DNA of 64,000 bases from an uncultured virus (IMG/VR IMGVR_UViG_3300047094_000158) (Duplodnaviria > Heunggongvirae > Uroviricota > Caudoviricetes): IMG/VR virus record IMGVR_UViG_3300047094_000158, one strand, 5' to 3'. The position numbers and the translations under genes were made by a program. Below, piece by piece: positions 6,196-61,813 of this stretch. Numbering within the stretch: position 1 is the first letter of the stretch; every line of letters begins with the position of its first letter. Below the pieces are notes generated by a model that ran no database searches, was not told the DNA's origin, and saw only the letters and a list, made by a program, of their open reading frames with translations.

Positions 6196-7656
6196 TTAAC
6201 CTATCCCTCTAATAATTTTAATTATTTCTTTATGATTTAAGTATTGTTTAGACTGATCTTGAAAAACCGCTGAATTAATCATTATTTCTGCATTATTTTT
6301 TATATTTTTTGATAAAAATTGATACTCGTTTAAAATTGCATCATTGTCAAACAAATTAAGACCTGCCATGACAACGACAAAGTTTAATGGTAAAAACATA
6401 GCATAAGAAGAATCTTTTCTAAAATCCTCTTTAATTGGAAGTTTTGTTTTCCATTTTTCTAAATTATATTTTAAAGATTCTGGTATGTCTATAGTTAAAA
6501 TATTTTTCCAAAATTCGGTATCATTTCTTTTTGTTAAATAATGTAAAACAATAAAGTCTCTAATATTTTCTGTAATATTTTCAAATGACTCATTATATTC
6601 TTTTATAACTCTTTCGTTATAATTTTGAAGTCTATGCATTAATAAAAAACTTTGTTGAATAGTTAATCCAATTGATGTTGCCTCTAGTGGTTCAAAAAAA
6701 CATCCACTTAATCCCATTGCAACACAATTTTTCGTCCATACAGTTTCTAAAGCCCCTGGATCAAAATTAAAAGTTTTTCCAACTTCTATTTTGTAACCAA
6801 GTTCTTTTTCTACTTCTAACTTTGCTTGATCGGCATTTATAAAATTATTATCATATATGTATCCATTTCCATGTCGTCCCCAAGTTGGTATTTTAAATCT
6901 CCAACCAGAATCCATGGCTTTTGCTAATGTCCAAAAATTATAATTATCTTCGTCAACAGTTGGAAATGTAATTGCAGAGTTCAATTTTAAATATTTATTA
7001 AAAGATTTCCATTTAACATCTAATTTATTCATTAAAACTCGTTTAAATCCTGTTGCATCTATATAAAAATCACTTTTATATTTATTTTTTTCTCCCACTA
7101 CATAATCAATAAATCCATTTTGATCTAATTCAACATATAAAATATTATCATCAAAAACATTGATTCCTTTTTCAATTGCTTTCTTTTTTAAAAAATCATT
7201 TAATTTAAATGTATTAAAATGATATTGATTTGTTACTGGTGTATTATCTATGTTTATTGCTTGAGCAATAACTTTATTTTGTAAAACACTATCTGGATAA
7301 ATGTATTGTAAGCCTTCAGATATTTGTTTTGCGTATACGTGTGAATATTGACCAACTATATTGCTAAATGGTGGACCAACCGTATGCATATATTTTTTAT
7401 TTTTAATCCAGCCATCAAACATAATTCCAATCTTAAATGTTGCATCACATTCTGTAATGATTTCACTACCTTTAATTCCAACAAAATCCATAAACTCTCT
7501 AAAATGTTCTGTTGATCCTTCTCCTACACCAACAATTCCAATATTTGAAGAATATACTAAATTAACCTCTAAAGTGCTACGTTCTTTTAAAATAAGTGCA
7601 GAAATTAAGCCAGCAGTTCCCCCACCAACAACAGTTAAACTTTTCACATGTTTCAT
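6196..7656 (-). CDS. Flavin-dependent halogenase, tryptophan halogenase (PrnA/RebH) family
   Basis: GGGTAG FAD motif, GVGEGS, ATFKIGI (catalytic Lys position), YIDATGF, WRFKIP (WxWxIP variant), FEPLEATSI. Confidence 0.88.
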   Translation of the reverse strand: MKHVKSLTVVGGGTAGLISALILKERSTLEVNLVYSSNIGIVGVGEGSTEHFREFMDFVGIKGSEIITECDATFKIGIMFDGWIKNKKYMHTVGPPFSNIVGQYSHVYAKQISEGLQYIYPDSVLQNKVIAQAINIDNTPVTNQYHFNTFKLNDFLKKKAIEKGINVFDDNILYVELDQNGFIDYVVGEKNKYKSDFYIDATGFKRVLMNKLDVKWKSFNKYLKLNSAITFPTVDEDNYNFWTLAKAMDSGWRFKIPTWGRHGNGYIYDNNFINADQAKLEVEKELGYKIEVGKTFNFDPGALETVWTKNCVAMGLSGCFFEPLEATSIGLTIQQSFLLMHRLQNYNERVIKEYNESFENITENIRDFIVLHYLTKRNDTEFWKNILTIDIPESLKYNLEKWKTKLPIKEDFRKDSSYAMFLPLNFVVVMAGLNLFDNDAILNEYQFLSKNIKNNAEIMINSAVFQDQSKQYLNHKEIIKIIRGIG

Positions 7657-15467: not shown

Positions 15468-16391
15468 CTATTTTAACATACTGGTAATGGAATTGTCAAA
15501 CTTAAACTCCAGTTTTTTAATTGCATCATCATCCATGTCGCCTATATCTTTATATTTTTTATCTATATACACAGAAGTAACAACAGGCCCAAGTCTTTTA
15601 ATTAACTTATCTCTCATTATTATTCCTGCATCATCGTTATCTGCAATTAAAACAATGCTATTAAAATACTTTTCTAATAGTTTTATCTGTGCTGCAGAAA
15701 CATTAGCACCCAGCGTAGCAACCGCAGGGAATCCTACTTGATCTAACCTAATTGCATCAAATGAAGACTCTACTACATAGACAATACTTGAAGTCTTTAT
15801 TCTATGTAAATTAAATAATGTTTTACCTTTTGGCAATCCAGGTGTATTTTTAAATTCTTTTCCTTCAACAGTTCTAGCCACAAACCCTATACACATTCCA
15901 TCTGGGGAGTGTACTGGTATTGTTACTGAATCTTGTTTTTCTGAATACCCAAGATTAAACTTATTAATAGAGTCTTTTGTAATACTTCTTCCTTCAAAAT
16001 ATCTAACTGCTCTTGGAGACTCCAATGCTTGATTAGTTAATCTTTTAATAAGAAGTTCATCGTACTGAATAAATTCTGGTTTTTCAACTAATGCCCTGTT
16101 TACTGAATCCTCAATACTTGTCTCTTGTTCTTTGCTTTTAATATACCTAATTGATTCAAAGTATGTTCTATTAGATGTGTGCATTATAAATTCAATAAGT
16201 GTTTTTGTTGTCTGGCATCCAAAACAAAAAAACATCCCATGATCTTTTGATACTTCTCCAGCAGGAGTTCTATTGTTATTGTGATATGGACAAAAAACAA
16301 TGTAGTCAGTTCCATACTCTGCTTCAATGTCAATTCCAGCGCCAGTTAGTACACGACGTACCTGTTCTGCAGTATACACATCTTTAACCAT
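15468..16391 (-). CDS. dnaG: DNA primase
   Basis: CHC2 zinc finger CPYH...CFGC; TOPRIM VVESSFD and IADNDDAG; start moved to MVKDVY at 16391. Confidence 0.92.
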   Translation of the reverse strand: MVKDVYTAEQVRRVLTGAGIDIEAEYGTDYIVFCPYHNNNRTPAGEVSKDHGMFFCFGCQTTKTLIEFIMHTSNRTYFESIRYIKSKEQETSIEDSVNRALVEKPEFIQYDELLIKRLTNQALESPRAVRYFEGRSITKDSINKFNLGYSEKQDSVTIPVHSPDGMCIGFVARTVEGKEFKNTPGLPKGKTLFNLHRIKTSSIVYVVESSFDAIRLDQVGFPAVATLGANVSAAQIKLLEKYFNSIVLIADNDDAGIIMRDKLIKRLGPVVTSVYIDKKYKDIGDMDDDAIKKLEFKFDNSITSMLK

Positions 16392-17610
16392 TTTTATCCT
16401 CATAGTCTTTATAGCGATAGTATCCTCTATCAAAGTCTACTTGAACTAAAAAATCACCCATAAAACCATTTCTATTTTTTCTAAATACGCATTCAATAAT
16501 ATCACTATTCGTAGCACGACCAAGAGCCATTACCCAGTCAGCATCATAGGCAATCTGTCTTGACCAAGCCGTTTGACCCAGTGTTGGTGGGCTAGATAAA
16601 TCCTTAACATCATCTGGTGTAGCAGAAGAAATAGCCATAATTGGAACCTCTTCACTGATAGACATAAGTTTAAGTTCTCGTGAAAGGTTTTTCATTCGTA
16701 CCGTTTCATTATCTGATTTTTGATTTGGAGACATAAGTTGTAAATAGTCAACAACAACAAAGTCTGGTTTATACTGATCAATTTTTCCACGTATAACCGA
16801 AGGAGTCACTTCTCCACCACTGTCATTAGATATAATATGAAACTCTGGCTTACCCTGTAATTTATCTGCATGCCATTTTTTAAGCATATCAATCTCTACT
16901 TCGCCATTGCTAAGTTTACGATGAGACCAAAGACCTTCACCCATAATTGCAAATACACGATTACGAACTTCTGTTTCAGACATTTCAAGACTTATGACTA
17001 GTGGGCTACGACCCTGTTTCCAAGCCTGTACAGCGAAATACAAGGCCAGCCAAGACTTTCCAATACCTGGGTATGCAAGGAAGACTCCAAGTTGTCCTGG
17101 CATAATTCCAGAAGGTAAATAGTTATCAAACCCTGGAAGCCCAGTTTTAATTCCAACCTGTCCAAGATCCTGCATTTTTTTTACATTTTCAAAATAAGCA
17201 ACTGCAGAGTCAAGGTCTGTTACCTCAATATCTCTAATTGCAGCAGTATTTTTTTTAAGTTCTGATGTCTTGGTAATTAAATGTTCAAGAGCATTATTAC
17301 CATTACCGCTTTGAACTTCACCTGCTGCATTTCGTAAAATATCTTTAAGGCTATCATTTAAATATTCTGATTGTAATTCTTCAAGATGGTGCTTAGTTGC
17401 ACCAACCCCCTCTACTGGATTAAAATCTCTAAACTTTTCTACAACTAATGATGTTGGTGGAACCGATTGGTTATTTTCTGAATACTGTCTAATAAAATTC
17501 CAGACATCGTTGTGAGTTCTTAAAAGATTATCAACATTGGCTTGTAACAATACATGGATTTGTTTATCATTTAATACTGCTGTAATTAATTTTGCTTCTG
17601 TATTATTCAC
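16384..17610 (-). CDS. dnaB: Replicative DnaB-like helicase
   Basis: AYPGIGKS, SLEMS, VVDYLQL, YDADWV, KNRNG. Confidence 0.93.
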   Translation of the reverse strand: MNNTEAKLITAVLNDKQIHVLLQANVDNLLRTHNDVWNFIRQYSENNQSVPPTSLVVEKFRDFNPVEGVGATKHHLEELQSEYLNDSLKDILRNAAGEVQSGNGNNALEHLITKTSELKKNTAAIRDIEVTDLDSAVAYFENVKKMQDLGQVGIKTGLPGFDNYLPSGIMPGQLGVFLAYPGIGKSWLALYFAVQAWKQGRSPLVISLEMSETEVRNRVFAIMGEGLWSHRKLSNGEVEIDMLKKWHADKLQGKPEFHIISNDSGGEVTPSVIRGKIDQYKPDFVVVDYLQLMSPNQKSDNETVRMKNLSRELKLMSISEEVPIMAISSATPDDVKDLSSPPTLGQTAWSRQIAYDADWVMALGRATNSDIIECVFRKNRNGFMGDFLVQVDFDRGYYRYKDYEDKNG

Positions 17611-17911
17611 TAATCCACTTTCTTGCTAGTTTTCTTCGCTCTTCTCGTTCTTTAATATCTTGCTCTACTTCTATTTTACCATTAAGAATTTTTTCTGCAT
17701 TGTATGCAAAATAATTCCAAGTAGGATTTTCCGCTATCTTAAAATAATAATCTAATAAATCATAACATTGAGAAATGCTATAAGATTCAACAAGAGCATC
17801 TGCAGCCCATTGTTCAACATTAAGATTCATGTTGCTTTTGGCTTCATATCTTTGTAGATGCAACTTATTGTATCTACTGAGCAAAGCCATACGGTCTTTG
17901 CGTTCAGCCAT
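17603..17911 (-). CDS. Hypothetical protein next to helicase
   Basis: 102-aa ORF, translationally coupled. Confidence 0.75.
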   Translation of the reverse strand: MAERKDRMALLSRYNKLHLQRYEAKSNMNLNVEQWAADALVESYSISQCYDLLDYYFKIAENPTWNYFAYNAEKILNGKIEVEQDIKEREERRKLARKWISE

Positions 17912-18123
17912 TAGTCGTTACTGTCGGCCTCTGACTCGGCTTCTTTAACTTTTTCTGTTAACTTTTCTTCAACAAATTTATAAATTCTTTCAAAAGCCTG
18001 CTCTGTATTTTCATCATCACGCTTAGAATCAACTACTCCAAAATCAAATCTTAATGACTGAAAATTACCTAGATTAAGCGTATATCCAAGTGCTACAGAT
18101 ATTTTTGTATTTTCGTTTTCCAT
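17911..18123 (-). CDS. Hypothetical phage protein
   Basis: MENENTKISVALGYTLNLGNFQSLRFDFG; start moved to ATG 18123, preceded by GGTGGGG. Confidence 0.75.
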   Translation of the reverse strand: MENENTKISVALGYTLNLGNFQSLRFDFGVVDSKRDDENTEQAFERIYKFVEEKLTEKVKEAESEADSND

Positions 18124-18142
18124 TACCCCACCATTTCTGCTA

Positions 18143-26885: not shown

Positions 26886-29800
26886 TATATTCTTTGCCCC
26901 CGAATTCTTTGTGAATCAACATTTTTAATTTCTCTTATTACTGCCCTAGCAATATCATTTGGATTTGAGTTACTTCCGTTAATATTAAATCCCAGACTAT
27001 AATTATACACTGCTGTAGAATTATCATTCATTGATGTAGAAATACTATTAACTGGAACCTGGGCACTATTTCTATTGCCAATCATTGAAGGATATTTTGA
27101 CTCATTCAACATTGATAGCAATGGGCCAAACTGCTGGGTTGCTTTTTTGTTCATTACAAACTCGCCAGGGGTGAGCATTGCTGGCACGGTATCAGAGCCA
27201 ATTGATCCACCATTAGCCATATATTTAGGAACTAGTCCTCCCATAGCCATAGATAAAATTTTTCCACCATACATTTTCTTCTGTGCTCCAGTAAATGGAT
27301 CAATGTTTGGATTTGCTTTAAAATAAGCATCGGCTTGGGCCTGTAATCTAACAGATGATGCGGCCAAGCCTGATGCTGGACCTGATGCTATTCCCCTATC
27401 TGTAAATTCTTTTGTTAAATCTTTTTGCATTTTATCATAGTCTGCAGGACCTGCAGTTTTTGCTGTAGGGCTAGGCACTGCTCCTGAAAGCGATGATGCA
27501 GCCTTCATTGAAGCAAGAATACTTGTCCACGCACCTGCTGCTGTGGTGGAAGAAGTGGCAACCTTGTCTATATCAATTACTATTTGATTCAGATGTTTAT
27601 TTGTTGCATCTGTATATCTTTGTATAAAGTCCCACTCAGCCCTTGTCATTCCATTAATTGTTAATGATTGTTGTTCTTTTGAAATTTGAAAATCAAGATC
27701 AGAAAGCAATTTCTTTTTTGCATCTGCTTGTTTTTGTAAAGGTTCAAGTTGTTTTAATTCAATATTATAAATTTCATCGTTTAAAGTAATAATTTTCGCA
27801 TCAATTTGTTTTCTAGTTAACTTTTCACCATTAACAACAGCGGTGACTAAAGACAAATCTTTTTGTTTTTCTAGTTCTAAGTTGCTTGTTGCTTTTTCTA
27901 ATCCTCCACCCATTCTATTAAGGGCTTCCTCTGCTGAACTTGCTCGCATTTCTTGTGCAATTGAAGCGGCTGCTGAAATATCTCCTTGAGTTAATGCGTT
28001 AGCAAGGCCAAGTTGTTTTTGTTGTTGTGAAATCAAAAATGAATTTATTGATTTTATTGATTCAAGAGCGTCTTTTTGTTTATTTAAAGATTCAATTTTT
28101 TTATCATAAGTTTCTGTAATAATACTTTCTTGTTTACCGATTGAGTCAAGAGTGCGACTATAAGATTTAATTTTTAAGTTAATTCCATTAATCTCATCTT
28201 CAATTTTATTAATTGCTTGTTCGTCAATCATAATGCTTAATTCTATTGCTTCTGAAGACATACCATTTATCTTTTTAAATGAATCTTTTGCCTTTTTTTG
28301 AATTTCAATAAATTGATAATCAAAATTTTCACTTAATGCTTCTGCTCCACCTTCTGATAATTCATCTGCTTCAAATTGAGTAGCCTTTAATGCTTTTTCA
28401 AATTCTTTTGTTGCAGCAGTAGCCTTTTTAGTTCTATCAATCATTTTTTCTAGATCTTTGCCATCCAGGTCTTTACTTACGATCGCTGCTGCTTGTGCTG
28501 CATCAGCAGTTAATTCTAGTGCAGTAGCGGCATCAACGCCTCTTGCTCTCAGCATTGATAGTGCTTTATTTTGAGTTGTTTGTTCTCTTGTAATCTGGTC
28601 CTGTTGTCTTAAATATATACCCGCCTGAACTGTTGGGAATAGTCGGTTTAATGATTTACCATAATCGTTTAGCACTAACTTGCCATTCTTTGCCTTACTT
28701 GTAATCTTATCAAAGAATTTTCCTGCTTCTTCTGCACCAAGTCCTTCGGCAAACTGAACTAAACTTTCGTTAGCACCCATACCTTGTAATTGATTTGTAG
28801 TTCCCTTAAATGCATTTATAGATTTTCCGCTACCCAGTTGTTTGACAAGTTCTTTCCAACCACCCAAAGCATTTACAGACTCTTTTCTAAATAATTTTAA
28901 TTTTAATAATAAGTCGTCAAGCACTGTATCTCGTTTGCCAGGACCCTTATCTTCAACAACTCCTCCACCTGGTATTGCTCCTGGTAATATTCCACCCTTT
29001 GCTATAATTTCTGCTGCACTTTTGCCAGCAGCACCTTCAAAACCTTTAAAGTTTGGATCGTTAGATACAACATCAAAAGCAACCTTTAGGTTTTTATTTA
29101 CAAAATCTTTTCCTTCAGACAAAATTGTCCATTGATCATAAAAAGCCTTCCACTCTCCTGGTTTTTCTTCAGCAAGTTTTGCAACTACATCTTTAGTTAA
29201 TGTGGGATCTAGCCCTTCAATTTGTTTTAATGCATTTGTAGCCGTTGCCAATTGCTGTATTCCATTGGCTTTAAGATCAAGAGTAATTCCATATGTAGGA
29301 TTTATTTGATTTAAGAAACTTAATGCTTGCATATCTTTATCAAAATCTTCACTGTTGTTATTAATATATCCAAGCATAAGCGCTCTTGTTGTATCTGTTG
29401 CACCCTCAGATGGTAACAATTCTGCAATTAATGCAGCATCTGCAAGACCTTGCTTGTCAACTAAAAGACTAAATGCTGTTTCAAATCCTTTATTTCCTGC
29501 TGCAGTTGAAAGAATTTTTGTAATTACTGCTGGTCCTACCTGCCCAGATGCAAGACCTACCTGCAACTCTGTTTTAAATTCTGAATCTTTTAAATTATTT
29601 AATGCGTCTAATGCTTGATCTTTAAAGACTGCCATTGGACCTTCTTTATACATCGCATCTGCTGCTGCCTTAATTCCTTTAGTAAACGCTTCTCCTCCTA
29701 GTTGATCTCTTTGTTTTACTAATAAATTTAATGCATTTGCATTACTTGCATTTAATGTAGCAAGACCTGCTTTTCTTTGATCTTCAATTGTTTTTATTTC

Positions 29801-39210: not shown

Positions 39211-39257
39211 ATTTTCTCCATTGTCCATTTGTAATTATACCATTATAATGACAATAA

Positions 39258-53561: not shown

Positions 53562-53583
53562 AGTGTAATTATATCATTATATG

Positions 53584-54218: not shown

Positions 54219-54283
54219 AATCTTATCATTATACCATTAACTAATAACAATATTATAAATATTTTTTTATTTTATGCGGGTAT

Positions 54284-54364: not shown

Positions 54365-54919
54365 ATGAGAGAATCTAATGCTTGGCTAGGGGTATTATCG
54401 TTAGTTATTTGTAGTACCGTTTTTGTGGGTACAGCAAAAGCATCAAACGAAAATAACTTATTAATTAAAGAGTCCATTAAGTCTGCCACCCAAGAGGTGG
54501 CTTTTTTGGTTTCTAAAGATAAAAAGTTAGAAAAATATGAAAATGCTGATAAATTAACCAATGAAGAATTAGTTGATTTGTTAAAGCATGTGGGGTTTGA
54601 AGGAAATGCTTTAAGAACTGCTTGTGCAATTGCTATGGCCGAAACCAACGCTAGACCACATGCTTTTAATGGTAATCCTAAAACTGGAGATAGTTCTTAT
54701 GGAATGTTTCAAATAAACATGATAGGGGACTTGGGGCCAGATCGCAGGGAGAAGTTTGAATTAGGTTCAAACTCTGAACTGTTTAACCCAGTTAAAAACG
54801 CACAGATAGCACATCATATGACTAAAGGTGGTAAAGACTGGTCTTCCTGGACTACCCTGAATGGATCACGGTATCAGGAATGGTACAACAAATATCCATG
54901 CAAAAAAGACAAAAAATAA
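54365..54919 (+). CDS. Secreted lysozyme-like / lytic transglycosylase protein
   Basis: N-terminal signal peptide; AIAMAET (catalytic Glu position), SYGMFQIN, LFNPVKNAQIA, WSSW; SD GGAGGT. Confidence 0.85.
   Translation: MRESNAWLGVLSLVICSTVFVGTAKASNENNLLIKESIKSATQEVAFLVSKDKKLEKYENADKLTNEELVDLLKHVGFEGNALRTACAIAMAETNARPHAFNGNPKTGDSSYGMFQINMIGDLGPDRREKFELGSNSELFNPVKNAQIAHHMTKGGKDWSSWTTLNGSRYQEWYNKYPCKKDKK
54485..54507 (+). terminator. Intragenic intrinsic terminator inside the lysozyme-like gene
   Basis: GCCACC-caaga-GGTGGC-TTTTTT on the coding strand. Confidence 0.65.
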
Positions 54920-54925
54920 TATCAA

Positions 54926-54967
54926 ATAAAATACCCCCCTTGCTTTTGGCTTGGGGGGTTTTATTTT
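54926..54967. terminator. Bidirectional terminator between convergent genes
   Basis: ACCCCCC...GGGGGGT stem with A-rich and T-rich flanks. Confidence 0.8.
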
Positions 54968-55016: not shown

Positions 55017-55706
55017 TTAAACCTTGCTAGTCCAGTATAGGTTGTAGTAGTCAACGTTTAATTGAAACCTTTTTACGTGCGTAGCAATAGCGCCTGTGTG
55101 TGCATGTAATGGAATTCCTGCTGCTTTTAATTTTCTAAAGAAAACAACATCTTCACCAATATACTCGTCTTCAATCCCCTCTTGTTCTGCAAATAAAGAC
55201 TGATTTGGATATTTTTCTCTTAATTTAGAAATAATAGATCGGTGCATAATTACTAACCCCATTCCAGCAGAATCACACCTTACAACCTCATCAACTGGAA
55301 GAGGATGTACATACTCAATAGCAAACTCAGACAGGTCATTAAATAGTGCGGGAAAAGGTACCATAAGAGAGCCATCTAATTGTTTAGAAATAAAATATGT
55401 TCCACTTACAACTGGTCTTTTTTCTTTGTCTGCCGTATCCCAAATTTTCTTTAATGTTTCTGCAGTTATATGAATGTCAGAGTCAATCCATAACAACCAA
55501 TCATCTTGTGAATCATTTGCCCAACAATCAAAAAGTGCTTGCCTCTGTCTTCCTATTTGATTTCCTTCTACACGCACAAAAGAATCTATGTTAAGACCAA
55601 GACTTTTGCCATGGGTAAAAATTGAAACTAATCCTTCTACAAATTTACCATCTGTGTTGCCATTGTCGCACCAACCAAGCGCAACAGATTCTTTTTTAGT
55701 TATCAC
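55017..55706 (-). CDS. Glycosyltransferase, GT-A fold (GT2-like)
   Basis: IGRQRQ, WLLWIDSD (DxD), AGMGLVIMHR, GEDVVF, terminal His. Confidence 0.85.
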   Translation of the reverse strand: MITKKESVALGWCDNGNTDGKFVEGLVSIFTHGKSLGLNIDSFVRVEGNQIGRQRQALFDCWANDSQDDWLLWIDSDIHITAETLKKIWDTADKEKRPVVSGTYFISKQLDGSLMVPFPALFNDLSEFAIEYVHPLPVDEVVRCDSAGMGLVIMHRSIISKLREKYPNQSLFAEQEGIEDEYIGEDVVFFRKLKAAGIPLHAHTGAIATHVKRFQLNVDYYNLYWTSKV

Positions 55707-55718
55707 GATTCTCCTATT

Positions 55719-55910
55719 TTATAAGTTTGGGATAGGTACAACTATATCAGAAGACAGTCCGCAGTTAAAGCAATGAGAACCTGGCGCATAAAAGTATTGG
55801 CTTTTATCAGATGCAAGGATTACCTTATTTTGTTTAAATAAGGGAATCATTTCTTGAGACCAATTACCGTAAATAATTGGCGCTAAGTCTGCACCGCAGT
55901 TTGGACACAT
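55719..55910 (-). CDS. Small zinc-binding protein
   Basis: CPNC...IIYG...CFNC; coupled to the upstream gene. Confidence 0.65.
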   Translation of the reverse strand: MCPNCGADLAPIIYGNWSQEMIPLFKQNKVILASDKSQYFYAPGSHCFNCGLSSDIVVPIPNL

Positions 55911-56596
55911 TACCTATACTCCTTTTTATTCCAAAACATAGTTTTATATCTATCAAAAAATTTGCTGTTTAGTTTTGACCTAATACTATGTTGTTCTTTA
56001 AGTTCTTTGTCAGATCCTAAACTCATATGCCAAGTATCACGCCTGAAGGGAATAACCTGTGCAATAGGTGTTCCTTTTGGAATTAACCCCTCAAAGTCAG
56101 GATCATTCATAATCATAGGGAAATTAATTGGCGCCGTGTAAGTGTCGGTATCCACAATTCCTGGAAGAATGGTAAAAACCGATTCTCTATGAAACGGTTG
56201 AACAAATAAGGTTGAATATCCTTTAGGTGTTTTAATAGACCAAGGATTCTCCCACTTGGGTACAGGTACATCTTGTCTATTTCGGGCTGGATGCTCAATG
56301 GCTTGTTCTAGAGAATGCAGACTAATTAAATTAAAAGAAGCCCATTCAAAGTAATGATAACCATCTACAAGGCTAACGTAGACATCAGCGGGTGACGAGA
56401 TTATATATCCTGCAGTTATAGCATCAAACACTGGCATGCAACGTTTTATCGTTCCCGTTGTACCACCGTTACCATCTGGTTTTTTATTTTTACCAATGTA
56501 TGAGTCTGTGTTTGTGTACCATTCAGGTATAAACTTAGATGCGGGTTGTGGGGGATCTATTTCAAAAGGAATAGTGTTGGTAAAAGTAATATTCAT
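55910..56596 (-). CDS. DUF6065-like protein (dUTPase-like beta-fold motifs)
   Basis: KRCMPVFDAITAGY, PWSIKTPKGYSTLF, PGIVDTD, IPKGTPIAQVIPF. Confidence 0.65.
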   Translation of the reverse strand: MNITFTNTIPFEIDPPQPASKFIPEWYTNTDSYIGKNKKPDGNGGTTGTIKRCMPVFDAITAGYIISSPADVYVSLVDGYHYFEWASFNLISLHSLEQAIEHPARNRQDVPVPKWENPWSIKTPKGYSTLFVQPFHRESVFTILPGIVDTDTYTAPINFPMIMNDPDFEGLIPKGTPIAQVIPFRRDTWHMSLGSDKELKEQHSIRSKLNSKFFDRYKTMFWNKKEYR

Positions 56597-56660
56597 CTGC
56601 CCCCCCGTTTATATTATTAAACCCACTATACAGCAATTACAAGCAAGCCTTTAAAACTAG

Positions 56661-60785: not shown

Positions 60786-60875
60786 TTACTTTATTTTTGT
60801 CTTAAAGACCTTTTTGCCAATTTTAACAATTGGTGGAATATTTGTATTTGGAGTAGAAACCTTTACAACTGGCAT
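60786..60875 (-). CDS. 29-aa basic peptide MPVVKVSTPNTNIPPIVKIGKKVFKTKIK
   Basis: Below ORF-track cutoff; TAATG coupling to upstream gene, GGAGG upstream, fills the gap exactly. Confidence 0.65.
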   Translation of the reverse strand: MPVVKVSTPNTNIPPIVKIGKKVFKTKIK

Positions 60876-61276
60876 TATAAACTTCCTCCAGGGGTGACAT
60901 TTCCAAGCACACAAATTGTTCCAATTACTGGAGTCCAAATTGTGTCTGCTTCTCCACTACCACCAGGAATTGTAACCTGAAGGTCAAATTGTAATTCTGA
61001 AACCACGGACCTATACTGAGTCCCCCAGTTAGTAGCAATATCTGCAGGTATAGAAATAATTGCATACCCATCATCTTCTGTTACTGTAAGTTCATCAAGA
61101 ACTTCTCCTGTAGGATCATAGGCTGTAGATAGGTATGTCCAGCCATCTGTGTCGTAAACAGTTGTTTCGTCATCTTCAAAAAATTCTACTTTTAGGGTCG
61201 CATTGTTTCCACGGACTACGGTCCATTGAATGTTTGCTGGCGAAGCGCCATATTTTTCTATTGTAGGAGCACACAT
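60875..61276 (-). CDS. BppU-N-like anchor protein, paralog 1
   Basis: IQWTVVRGN...QFDLQV...WTPVIGTICVLGNVT; promoter at 61285-61293. Confidence 0.65.
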   Translation of the reverse strand: MCAPTIEKYGASPANIQWTVVRGNNATLKVEFFEDDETTVYDTDGWTYLSTAYDPTGEVLDELTVTEDDGYAIISIPADIATNWGTQYRSVVSELQFDLQVTIPGGSGEADTIWTPVIGTICVLGNVTPGGSL

Positions 61277-61296
61277 AATAATTGATTATACCATTA

Positions 61297-61352
61297 AATA
61301 AAACTGGACACCTAGACGCAGTGGGGTGGGGGGGTAGTATCTAGGTGCCAGC
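61297..61352 (-). ncRNA. Candidate ~55-nt hairpin sRNA with C-rich loop
   Basis: TGTTATAAT at 61359-61367, then GCTGGCACCTAGA-tactaCCCCCCCACCCCactgcg-TCTAGGTG-t-CCAG-TTTTATTT. Confidence 0.5.
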
Positions 61353-61568
61353 ATAAAAATTATAACATTGTATTATTCTAAAACGGACATATTATAACAA
61401 AACGTTATAAACCAGACATTAAAAGAATTGTTATAGAATCGTTATAATCATTTCCGCATAAAGTGTAAAAAACCAGGGTATAAAAGTGTATACTTAAAAT
61501 ATATAAAGAAAAAGAATAACTAGCAAGTAAGGTTTTTAAAGTATCTTATATATTATATATAAAGAAAA

Positions 61569-61784
61569 TTATTTTTTAGAATGATCTTTAAAGTGTTCAA
61601 GTAAAAGATCAAATAGTTTGTCAGTTTTTTCCTCTAGGCGATTAACGGAGTCTTTTAGACTGGATCCAGAATTTGGCTTAAGTTCGTTTAAATAATGCTT
61701 TACAAGCCAACGAATTCCACCAGCAACAATAGTTACAATGGTAAGAAGAGTTAAGGTTAATGCTGCCCAATCTTGAGGTGACAT
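61569..61784 (-). CDS. Single-TM membrane protein with coiled-coil tail (holin-associated type)
   Basis: N-terminal TM, LKPNSGSSLKDSVNRLE; leaderless start 7 nt after TGATATAAT (61792-61800). Confidence 0.7.
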   Translation of the reverse strand: MSPQDWAALTLTLLTIVTIVAGGIRWLVKHYLNELKPNSGSSLKDSVNRLEEKTDKLFDLLLEHFKDHSKK

Positions 61785-61813
61785 AAGGTTTATTATATCA
61801 TTATTTGAGACTG

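Follow-up and report, generated by a model that had tools for sequence, protein, structure and literature searches.

A candidate single-hairpin small RNA with a conserved C-rich loop in an uncultured phage and its proposed target at the head of the phage replication genes

Introduction

The described small RNAs (sRNAs) of E. coli phages and prophages depend on Hfq. In the title of one preprint (10.1101/2024.10.31.621285), a phage sRNA is reportedly tied to the host replication machinery; RNAs of this kind are also the subject of a review (PMC12197685). In phage lambda, the short oop RNA, which runs from promoter to terminator, down-regulates a phage gene to which it is cis-antisense, and in T4 the RegA protein acts at the start sites of early phage mRNAs to repress their translation. 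In the literature, covered at the level of titles and abstracts, those phage sRNAs for which a target is known are from E. coli phages or prophages, and no account of an actinophage sRNA was found. In Actinobacteria, the C-rich loops of the 6C RNA pair with G-rich ribosome-binding sites, for example AGGGGGG of panD, without Hfq or ProQ, and short G-C seeds suffice, according to the 6C study (PMC6486639). Here we describe an element at positions 61296–61352 of a 64,000-nucleotide stretch from an uncultured virus of the Caudoviricetes (IMG/VR record IMGVR_UViG_3300047094_000158; hereafter, the window, meaning the whole stretch that was analysed), in which a first-pass annotation had seen a self-contained small RNA with a C-rich loop. 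In the same literature, no account of this RNA was found, and its family is absent from Rfam 15.

On the evidence presented below, we consider it rather probable that the RNA is transcribed from its own promoter, that its loop pairs with the start site of a phage gene of 70 amino acids (aa), and that this pairing lowers the translation of this gene and, by coupling, that of the helicase genes behind it.

Results

Organization of the predicted small RNA gene

The element is read on the minus strand, as are the genes from 62539 down to 1147, and window coordinates below refer to this strand unless marked otherwise. The parts listed by the first-pass annotation, namely a promoter about 7 nt before the stem, a hairpin, a C-rich loop and a T-rich tail, are all present. 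A proximal extended −10 promoter TGTTATAAT (61359–61367) precedes the predicted RNA of about 55 nt (61296–61352), the ends of which are placed from the motifs: the RNA would start at G61352, the seventh nucleotide past the −10 hexamer, and would consist of the hairpin and a U tail. The stem has 13–14 bp with one bulged U (61304–61351, 48 nt) and is built from a 5′ arm of 13 nt (61339–61351) and a 3′ arm of 14 nt that includes the bulged U (61304–61317). Between the arms lies an unpaired C-rich loop of 21 nt, ACUACCCCCCCACCCCACUGC (61318–61338), which holds C7-A-C4 at 61323–61334 and is the proposed pairing surface. The U-rich terminator tail UUUUAUUU (TTTTATTT; 61296–61303) follows the G+C-rich stem directly, as in an intrinsic terminator; a simple terminator scan missed this hairpin because its loop limit was 8 nt. 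The hairpin probably also ends the transcript of the upstream three-gene unit. In terms of motifs, the element has the form of a trans-encoded sRNA gene, that is, a non-coding unit bounded by its own promoter and its own terminator.

A second extended −10 word, also TGTTATAAT (61391–61399), stands in tandem about 32 nt before the proximal one; it is kept in the flanks of most relatives and may be used as well. Downstream, the next promoter TGGTATAAT (61285–61293) serves a leaderless 133-aa gene (60875–61276), the ATG of which lies eight bases past the −10 hexamer.

The folding check suggested by the annotation favours the structure, with a minimum free energy (MFE) of −20.3 kcal/mol (z −3.8) that none of 200 shuffled sequences matched. 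The 48-nt hairpin occurs once in the window, and the RNA is C-rich and G-poor. As for the annotation's remark that the C run stands out, the C7-A-C4 loop is indeed there, but C6 runs alone are not unusual (6 in the window against 7.5 ± 3.5 expected). The pattern GGG+[T/A]GGG+ occurs in the window only at the RNA locus and at two short sites.

Conservation and covariation of the element

A search with the 133-aa protein yielded 162 stretches confirmed to carry a relative, from which we kept 80 loci, and a covariance model, R1, was built from 33 variants. In the window, R1 has one strong match (78.6 bits), the next reaching 10.4 bits with an E value of 2.8. It matches 78 of the 80 protein-anchored loci, and the two misses are L025 and L038, in which the upstream sequence is only 405 and 38 nt long. 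Because of an inserted gene, the element in L004 and L006 is displaced upstream by about 800 nt. Such an inserted gene, the product of which starts with ...KKPIIVYWSPE, is found between the sRNA and the 133-aa gene in some relatives (L004:1690–1800, L095:1240–1330); it is leaderless from a TGATATACT promoter in L004 and has a GGGGGAC ribosome-binding site in L095, where the sRNA is without a clean U tail.

An IMG/VR scan for the loop pattern returned at least 120 contigs. Eighty pattern loci, L110 being a false positive, were fetched and combined with the window and with 19 of the 80 protein-anchored loci, chosen for distinct stem classes, into a wider set of 100 sources, of which R1 matches 99, giving 67 distinct sequences. 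The five long relatives searched each hold exactly one R1 match, and all 37 variants folded form a single hairpin.

The covariation that the annotation had proposed as a check was found. With alignments fitted to the model, and with CTAG fixed in both arms by the retrieval pattern of the wider set, 96.0% of stem cells are paired in the protein-anchored set and 93.8% in the wider set, and 6 and 7 of the 14 pairs, respectively, changed on both sides. Double-changed cells number 43 against 13.4 ± 4.8 after shuffling in the former and 99 against 31.6 ± 3.7 in the latter; none of 500 shuffles reached either value, and controls with slid arms were paired in 25–46% and 27–46% of cells. Relatives reached via another gene show compensated changes in the upper stem as well (CUCAGGA/UCUUGAG and CCAAGU/GCUUGG). 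Stem cells hold 96 G-U against 9 A-C combinations, which indicates that the structure is selected on the minus-strand RNA and not as a DNA palindrome.

Among the 67 distinct variants, the upper stem CCUAGG and the 3′ motif of the loop are conserved in sequence and the lower stem covaries. The loop segment CCCC-ACUGC, with CUAC before the C run, is near-invariant, and the adjacent protein drops to 66% identity. Nearly all variants have U or A in the columns of the tail, L095 being an exception. According to the annotation, conservation that followed an overlapping open reading frame (ORF) of 22 codons would have spoken against the small RNA; it is the loop that is conserved, and the start codon and open frame of this ORF are kept in only 7 of the 67 variants, with element lengths falling in all three classes modulo 3.

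At 6–8 nt upstream of the first stem base, all 72 distinct flanks, which lie outside every search pattern, carry a TANNNT hexamer; 69 of these hexamers are TATAAT, and 65 have TG in front. Likewise, TGNTATAAT stands after the U tail, with a start codon 6–8 nt on, in 72 of 72 flanks, including those with the inserted gene. With a promoter in every flank, a covarying stem, a conserved loop and a terminator, the comparison supports the prediction, made by the annotation, of a self-contained sRNA gene.

Divergent sRNA modules were also observed at L606:1495–1562 (genome G169, minus strand) and L607:1590–1645 (G170, plus strand), with loops containing UAUACCCAC. Both score below the R1 threshold, so the family is wider than R1 detects.

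Proposed target and its co-variation with the loop

The proposed target is the initiation region AAAUGGUGGGGUA-AUG (18121–18140) of the 70-aa gene (17911–18123; phrog_5189), with which the loop can form seven contiguous Watson–Crick pairs. This gene heads the replication block: in the sequence UAAUG, its stop codon shares bases with the ATG of a 102-aa gene, which in turn overlaps the DnaB helicase gene (16384–17610) by 8 nt, and the SSB, Pol III alpha and RecA genes follow. The 68 genes called in the window omit the 70-aa gene because its frame is open 5′ of the true start. At least 597 IMG/VR stretches carry it. The annotation had named four G-rich leaders as possible targets; all four exist, and GGTGGGG before 18123 proved to be the best conserved complementary site, the other three finding no support.

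The calculated duplex of the loop with the 70-aa start region has −16.8 kcal/mol in the window, which ranks second among 68 start regions. The cognate-loop duplexes have −17.5 kcal/mol in G002 (rank 1 of 154), −18.5 kcal/mol in G004 (rank 1 of 124) and −13.4 kcal/mol in G003 (rank 11 of 154), and the mean of the four genomes, about −16.6 kcal/mol, compares with −5.2 ± 2.5 kcal/mol for 54 other ortholog families, the best of which reaches −12.3 kcal/mol. Shuffling of the site gave p values of 0.001–0.023 in seven of eight genomes (p = 0.023 in the window). The target region is unstructured (MFE −4.4 kcal/mol, z +0.65), which makes occlusion more plausible than activation by unfolding. It should be noted that a three-codon mini-frame, AUG GUG GGG UAA (18123–18134), overlaps the target site and, through its stop codon, also the AUG of the 70-aa gene. 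This mini-frame is not conserved, ACG replacing its AUG in G004.

Fourteen genomes with both the RNA and the 70-aa gene were assembled. Searches of RNA-bearing long records for the gene succeeded in 4/4, 4/5, 0/5 and 1/5 cases, and searches of gene-bearing long records for the RNA in 3/5 (R1, E ≤ 0.01) and 0/5; G169 was reached by a weak R1 match (E 0.12) and G170 by BLAST with the G169 module. In all 14 genomes, the longest Watson–Crick match between loop and mRNA, 5–10 nt, lies between −10 and 0 of the 70-aa start codon.

The loop and the site change together. In the window, G002, G005, G006, G160, G166 and G167, loops with C5 to C7 face the site GGUGGGG with seven contiguous pairs. In G004, the loop UACCCCACC faces GGUGGGGUA with nine pairs and, in G176, the loop UACCCCACCC faces GGGUGGGGUA with ten, these two genomes sharing a loop UACCCCACC(C) paired with a site (G)GGUGGGGUA. 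G159 has one C fewer in its loop, UACCCACC, one G fewer in its site, GGUGGGUA, and eight contiguous pairs. G168 retains six pairs and G003, with a diverged site, five. In G169 (118.8 kb, complete) and G170 (89% complete), the whole module has diverged, i.e., promoter, 14-bp hairpin, U tail and next promoter; their loops, CCUAUACCC and UUUCUUAUACCCAC, have lost most of the C run and kept complementarity to the sites of their own 70-aa genes, which begin after GAAGGGUAUAAA and AAGGGGUAUAAA, with seven and eight contiguous pairs. Here (U)UAUACCC in the loop matches GGGUAUA(A) in the site, a natural class of UUAUACCC with GGGUAUAA.

In the 14 × 14 cross-matrix, each loop class scores best on its own site class. 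The system thus shows the combination found in a base-pairing sRNA, an unpaired conserved seed against a conserved mRNA site with compensatory change, in three loop/site classes. For the canonical AGGAG class of the 70-aa gene (G171, G173), the sRNA pattern search gave only antisense copies of ordinary ribosome-binding sites.

Other candidate sites

In the window, the loop forms its best duplexes with repeats of glycine codons and the G7 ribosome-binding site (56597–56610) of a 228-aa gene (55910–56596), the latter giving the best start-region duplex (−23.7 to −25.7 kcal/mol). This window-specific second site is the G-run leader at 56596 of the annotation; strong as it is in the window, it is not kept with the RNA in relatives, and we rejected it as a conserved target. 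The 228-aa orthologues mostly have AAGGGGAC or are leaderless, and the RNA lies within 8 kb upstream in only 12 of 80 loci of this gene. Among nine distinct pairs of RNA and 228-aa gene, six have a run of at least four G, the length of which does not track the loop. Apart from the uncalled gene at 18123, GGGG is found in the leaders of only 4 of the 68 called genes.

In G002 (about 78,690–78,760, minus strand) and in G003 (28,385–28,480, plus strand; L302:8385–8480), a hairpin whose loop is G-rich was seen just before a promoter. Its stem is GGGAG(A)GCGC / GCGCUCUCCC, and its loop holds GUGGGG or GGUGGG, complementary to the sRNA loop; it is absent from the window. We dropped it as a partner of the sRNA, the pattern scan used for tracing it being too unspecific.

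Comparison with 6C RNA and search for host copies

The annotation had compared the element to 6C and had asked for an Rfam search. No Rfam family matches the 64-kb window at gathering score (47 bits for 6C, RF01066); 6C has no match at E ≤ 10 in 61100–61700, and neither Rfam nor 6C matches at E ≤ 1 in 12 divergent relatives. Weak matches to rseX, CAESAR and mir-7 are due to chance. The Rfam model of 6C itself finds 8 of 151 sampled Actinomycetota genomes, seven of 6–9 Mb and one Corynebacterium genome of 2.7 Mb. When folded, four examples of 6C each gave two hairpins, the loops being GACCCCCCG and UCCUCCCCCCCU. The phage element shares with 6C the run of at least six conserved unpaired cytosines, loop columns 29–38 being mostly C in the 67 distinct variants, but it has one hairpin in place of two tandem C-rich stem-loops and is phage-borne, not a chromosomal actinobacterial gene.

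The annotation's other suggestion, mimicry of a host sRNA, found no counterpart in the host data covered: R1 has no match in the 151 sampled Actinomycetota genomes, a partial sample, and a pattern scan of genome contigs gave nine stretches, none of which is a true match (best 17.9 bits). A G+C-rich repeat element is what L085 and the viral locus L110 represent, and both were discarded. The RNA is not a member of 6C; the lack of an Rfam match, the single hairpin and the lack of a host copy in these searches indicate a likeness by design and not by descent.

Promoter words and leaderless genes

The word TGNTATAAT occurs at 19 sites in the window against 5.8 ± 2.4 expected, a number reached by none of 100 shuffles. 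The coding strand holds 17 of the 19 sites, and a comparison with the ORF map places 14 of these 17 directly 5′ of the start of a gene; the two at 61359 and 61391 lie in front of the hairpin, not of a protein gene. On these sequence statistics, TGNTATAAT is a real promoter word of the window phage. At several sites (39234–39242, 53568–53576, 54228–54236, 61285–61293, 61792–61800 and others), the start codon lies 5–9 nt past the −10 hexamer, which implies leaderless mRNAs. Genes of this leaderless type coexist with genes that have strong AGGAGG sites.

The region 5′ of both sRNA promoters (61400–61445) contains repeated TTATAAC / GTTATAA half-sites (TTATAAC-N5-GTTATAA), and TGTCTGG and TGTCCG boxes lie 16–19 nt before each sRNA −10 and are kept in relatives too. 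The half-sites or the TGTC boxes may represent an operator or a −35-like element.

The phage and its setting

The window codes for Pol III alpha, RecA, DnaB, SSB, a class II ribonucleotide reductase, a portal protein, a protease and a tape measure protein of 2455 aa; the tRNA scan of the window returned no tRNA. The portal is closest to those of Streptomyces phages (46% identity over 99% of the length; 127 of 311 matching records). A complete RNA-bearing relative, G002 (109,757 bp, with terminal repeats), encodes WhiB (43.8 bits against a cut-off of 23.6), which is an actinophage marker (PMC10202952). All 24 sequencing runs that contain the stretch are DNA runs of lake-water metagenomes or related ones. 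From the Streptomyces-like portal, WhiB in G002, the common leaderless promoters and the source of these runs, we infer that the window phage is an uncultured freshwater actinophage of about 105–110 kb.

The 50,697 deposited phages of INPHARED include no close relative of the window phage and no homologue of the 133-aa protein or of the RNA region, the single match to which falls in a neighbouring gene. The nearest record, G001, holds nothing matching the RNA region.

Several other features were observed. A full-length tryptophan halogenase homologue is encoded at 6196–7656 (Pfam PF04820, E 5.9 × 10−92). A C6...G6 hairpin (54934–54958) lies between the convergent genes 54365–54919 (plus strand) and 55017–55706 (minus strand) and resembles an ordinary two-way terminator. 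In G002 (L298:7495–14760, L299:17648–18862, L300:100–1296), there are several paralogues in series that combine fibronectin type III with glycine-rich domains, together with several glycosyltransferase genes and one Hsp20 gene.

Discussion

From the anatomy, conservation, stem covariation, strand, complementarity and loop–site co-variation observed here, we infer expression, binding and repression by this RNA as follows. An RNA of about 55 nt, consisting of one terminator hairpin, would be transcribed independently from its own host-type promoter. Its C-rich apical loop of 17–21 nt would pair in trans with GGUGGGG(UA)AUG of the 70-aa gene and would occlude the ribosome-binding site and the start codon, so that less of the 70-aa protein would be made. 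Translational coupling from the 70-aa gene through the 102-aa gene to DnaB would extend the drop to the helicase genes, with SSB, Pol III alpha and RecA following. A chaperone would not be needed in an actinobacterial host, as is described for 6C (PMC6486639).

Several points weigh against this mechanism. The match in the window is only seven contiguous pairs, a score surpassed by the G7 leader of another gene, and complements of loop 7-mers are not enriched overall in start regions. G003 is weak, its diverged site with five contiguous pairs ranking 11th of 154 at a shuffle p of 0.14. Loops with C5 or C7 face sites with G4, so the register is not always exact. The compensatory events that are independent number two or three, and the ranks and p values are not independent because the genomes are related. 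Five records with the 70-aa gene, 49–74% complete, gave no RNA match. The sRNA promoter is of the same type as that of the structural genes, and none of the 24 sequencing runs is an RNA run, the transcript and its ends being predicted from motifs.

The RNA could instead act as a 6C-like global regulator of G-rich leaders in the host or in many phage mRNAs, the match to the 70-aa gene being one among many or incidental. Such a role would agree with the short G-C seeds that suffice in Actinobacteria (PMC6486639), with the G7 leader of another gene as the best duplex in the window and with a CCCC-ACUGC segment that is near-invariant although the matched register varies among genomes. We nevertheless regard it as unlikely: phage start regions show no excess of loop complements, the 228-aa gene has its G-rich leader whether the RNA is near or not (the RNA lies within 8 kb upstream in 12 of 80 loci), and the loops of G169 and G170 still complement their own 70-aa site after losing most of the C run. 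Somewhat less probable still is a decoy or ligand whose loop and upper stem are bound, without base-pairing, by a host or phage protein, e.g., Rho, an RNase or a translational repressor. A C-rich, G-poor RNA in which the upper stem CCUAGG and the 3′ loop motif stay constant while the lower stem covaries would fit such a protein, but in further relatives the upper stem varies with compensation, and the changes in the loop track a specific mRNA site.

We give equally little weight to a purely cis-acting element, which would serve the upstream three-gene unit as its intrinsic terminator or insulator, or would be an antiterminated promoter-proximal terminator like the lambdoid PR′-tR′. The hairpin with its U tail is terminator-like, no other hairpin was noticed between the stop of the 71-aa gene (61569) and the RNA hairpin, and the locus is near the head of a long leftward gene array. 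However, a terminator needs no conserved loop of 20 nt, all 72 flanks have a conserved promoter aimed straight into the hairpin, and a separate leaderless promoter serves the next gene in each of them, even with the inserted gene, which is not the PR′-tR′ arrangement. It appears very improbable that the element encodes a 22-codon peptide or is a DNA palindrome in the role of an operator, an origin or a packaging signal. The inverted repeat does lie between genes, in a region with many promoter words and TTATAAC repeats, and an ATG-started frame of 22 codons is present in the window; the excess of G-U over A-C cells points to selection on one strand, and a frame kept in 7 of 67 variants, in elements with lengths of all three classes modulo 3, is not what a peptide gene would leave.

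Returning to the pairing of the loop with the 70-aa start site, we see about an even chance for a broader proposal: that an RNA of one hairpin, minimal and chaperone-free, is dedicated to the control of the phage's own replication module, that a kissing contact forms between its loop and the ribosome-binding site of the gene which leads the block, and that loop and site have co-evolved via at least three classes across hundreds of uncultured freshwater actinophage genomes. The family is abundant, as judged by the contigs with the loop pattern (at least 120) and the 162 relatives of the neighbouring gene. If the proposal is true, the replication genes of phages that infect abundant lake actinobacteria are tuned by RNA, 6C-type pairing of C-rich loops with G-rich sites gains natural compensatory variants, and a new RNA family becomes usable for annotating metagenomic phages. 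The proposed target is specific and falsifiable, and the RNA is compact enough for tests with few oligonucleotides.

Among known systems, the nearest in design is 6C (B11, RF01066), which is likewise a small RNA with long G+C-rich stems, unpaired C-rich loops and a last hairpin that acts as terminator, in an actinobacterial setting. It differs in that the loop of the phage RNA is interrupted by A and ends in ACUGC, and in that the proposed target is the phage's own gene. With the trans-acting sRNAs of enterobacterial phages, the phage RNA described here would share the control of translation by base-pairing of small phage transcripts; unlike them, it is a minimal single hairpin of uncultured actinophages, has its seed in a loop and not at a single-stranded 5′ end, and appears to target the phage's own replication block. 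Lambda oop is cis-antisense, whereas about 43 kb separate the gene for the RNA described here and the proposed target. With an ordinary intrinsic terminator, it has in common a G+C-rich stem followed by a U-rich tail, but it has in addition a conserved loop of 17–21 nt, a dedicated promoter 6–8 nt upstream and a co-variation of the loop with a distant mRNA site. RegA of T4 is a protein, whereas the repressor proposed here is an RNA; if the proposal holds, it would be an RNA counterpart of such protein translational repressors, in hosts whose sRNA biology is almost unexplored.

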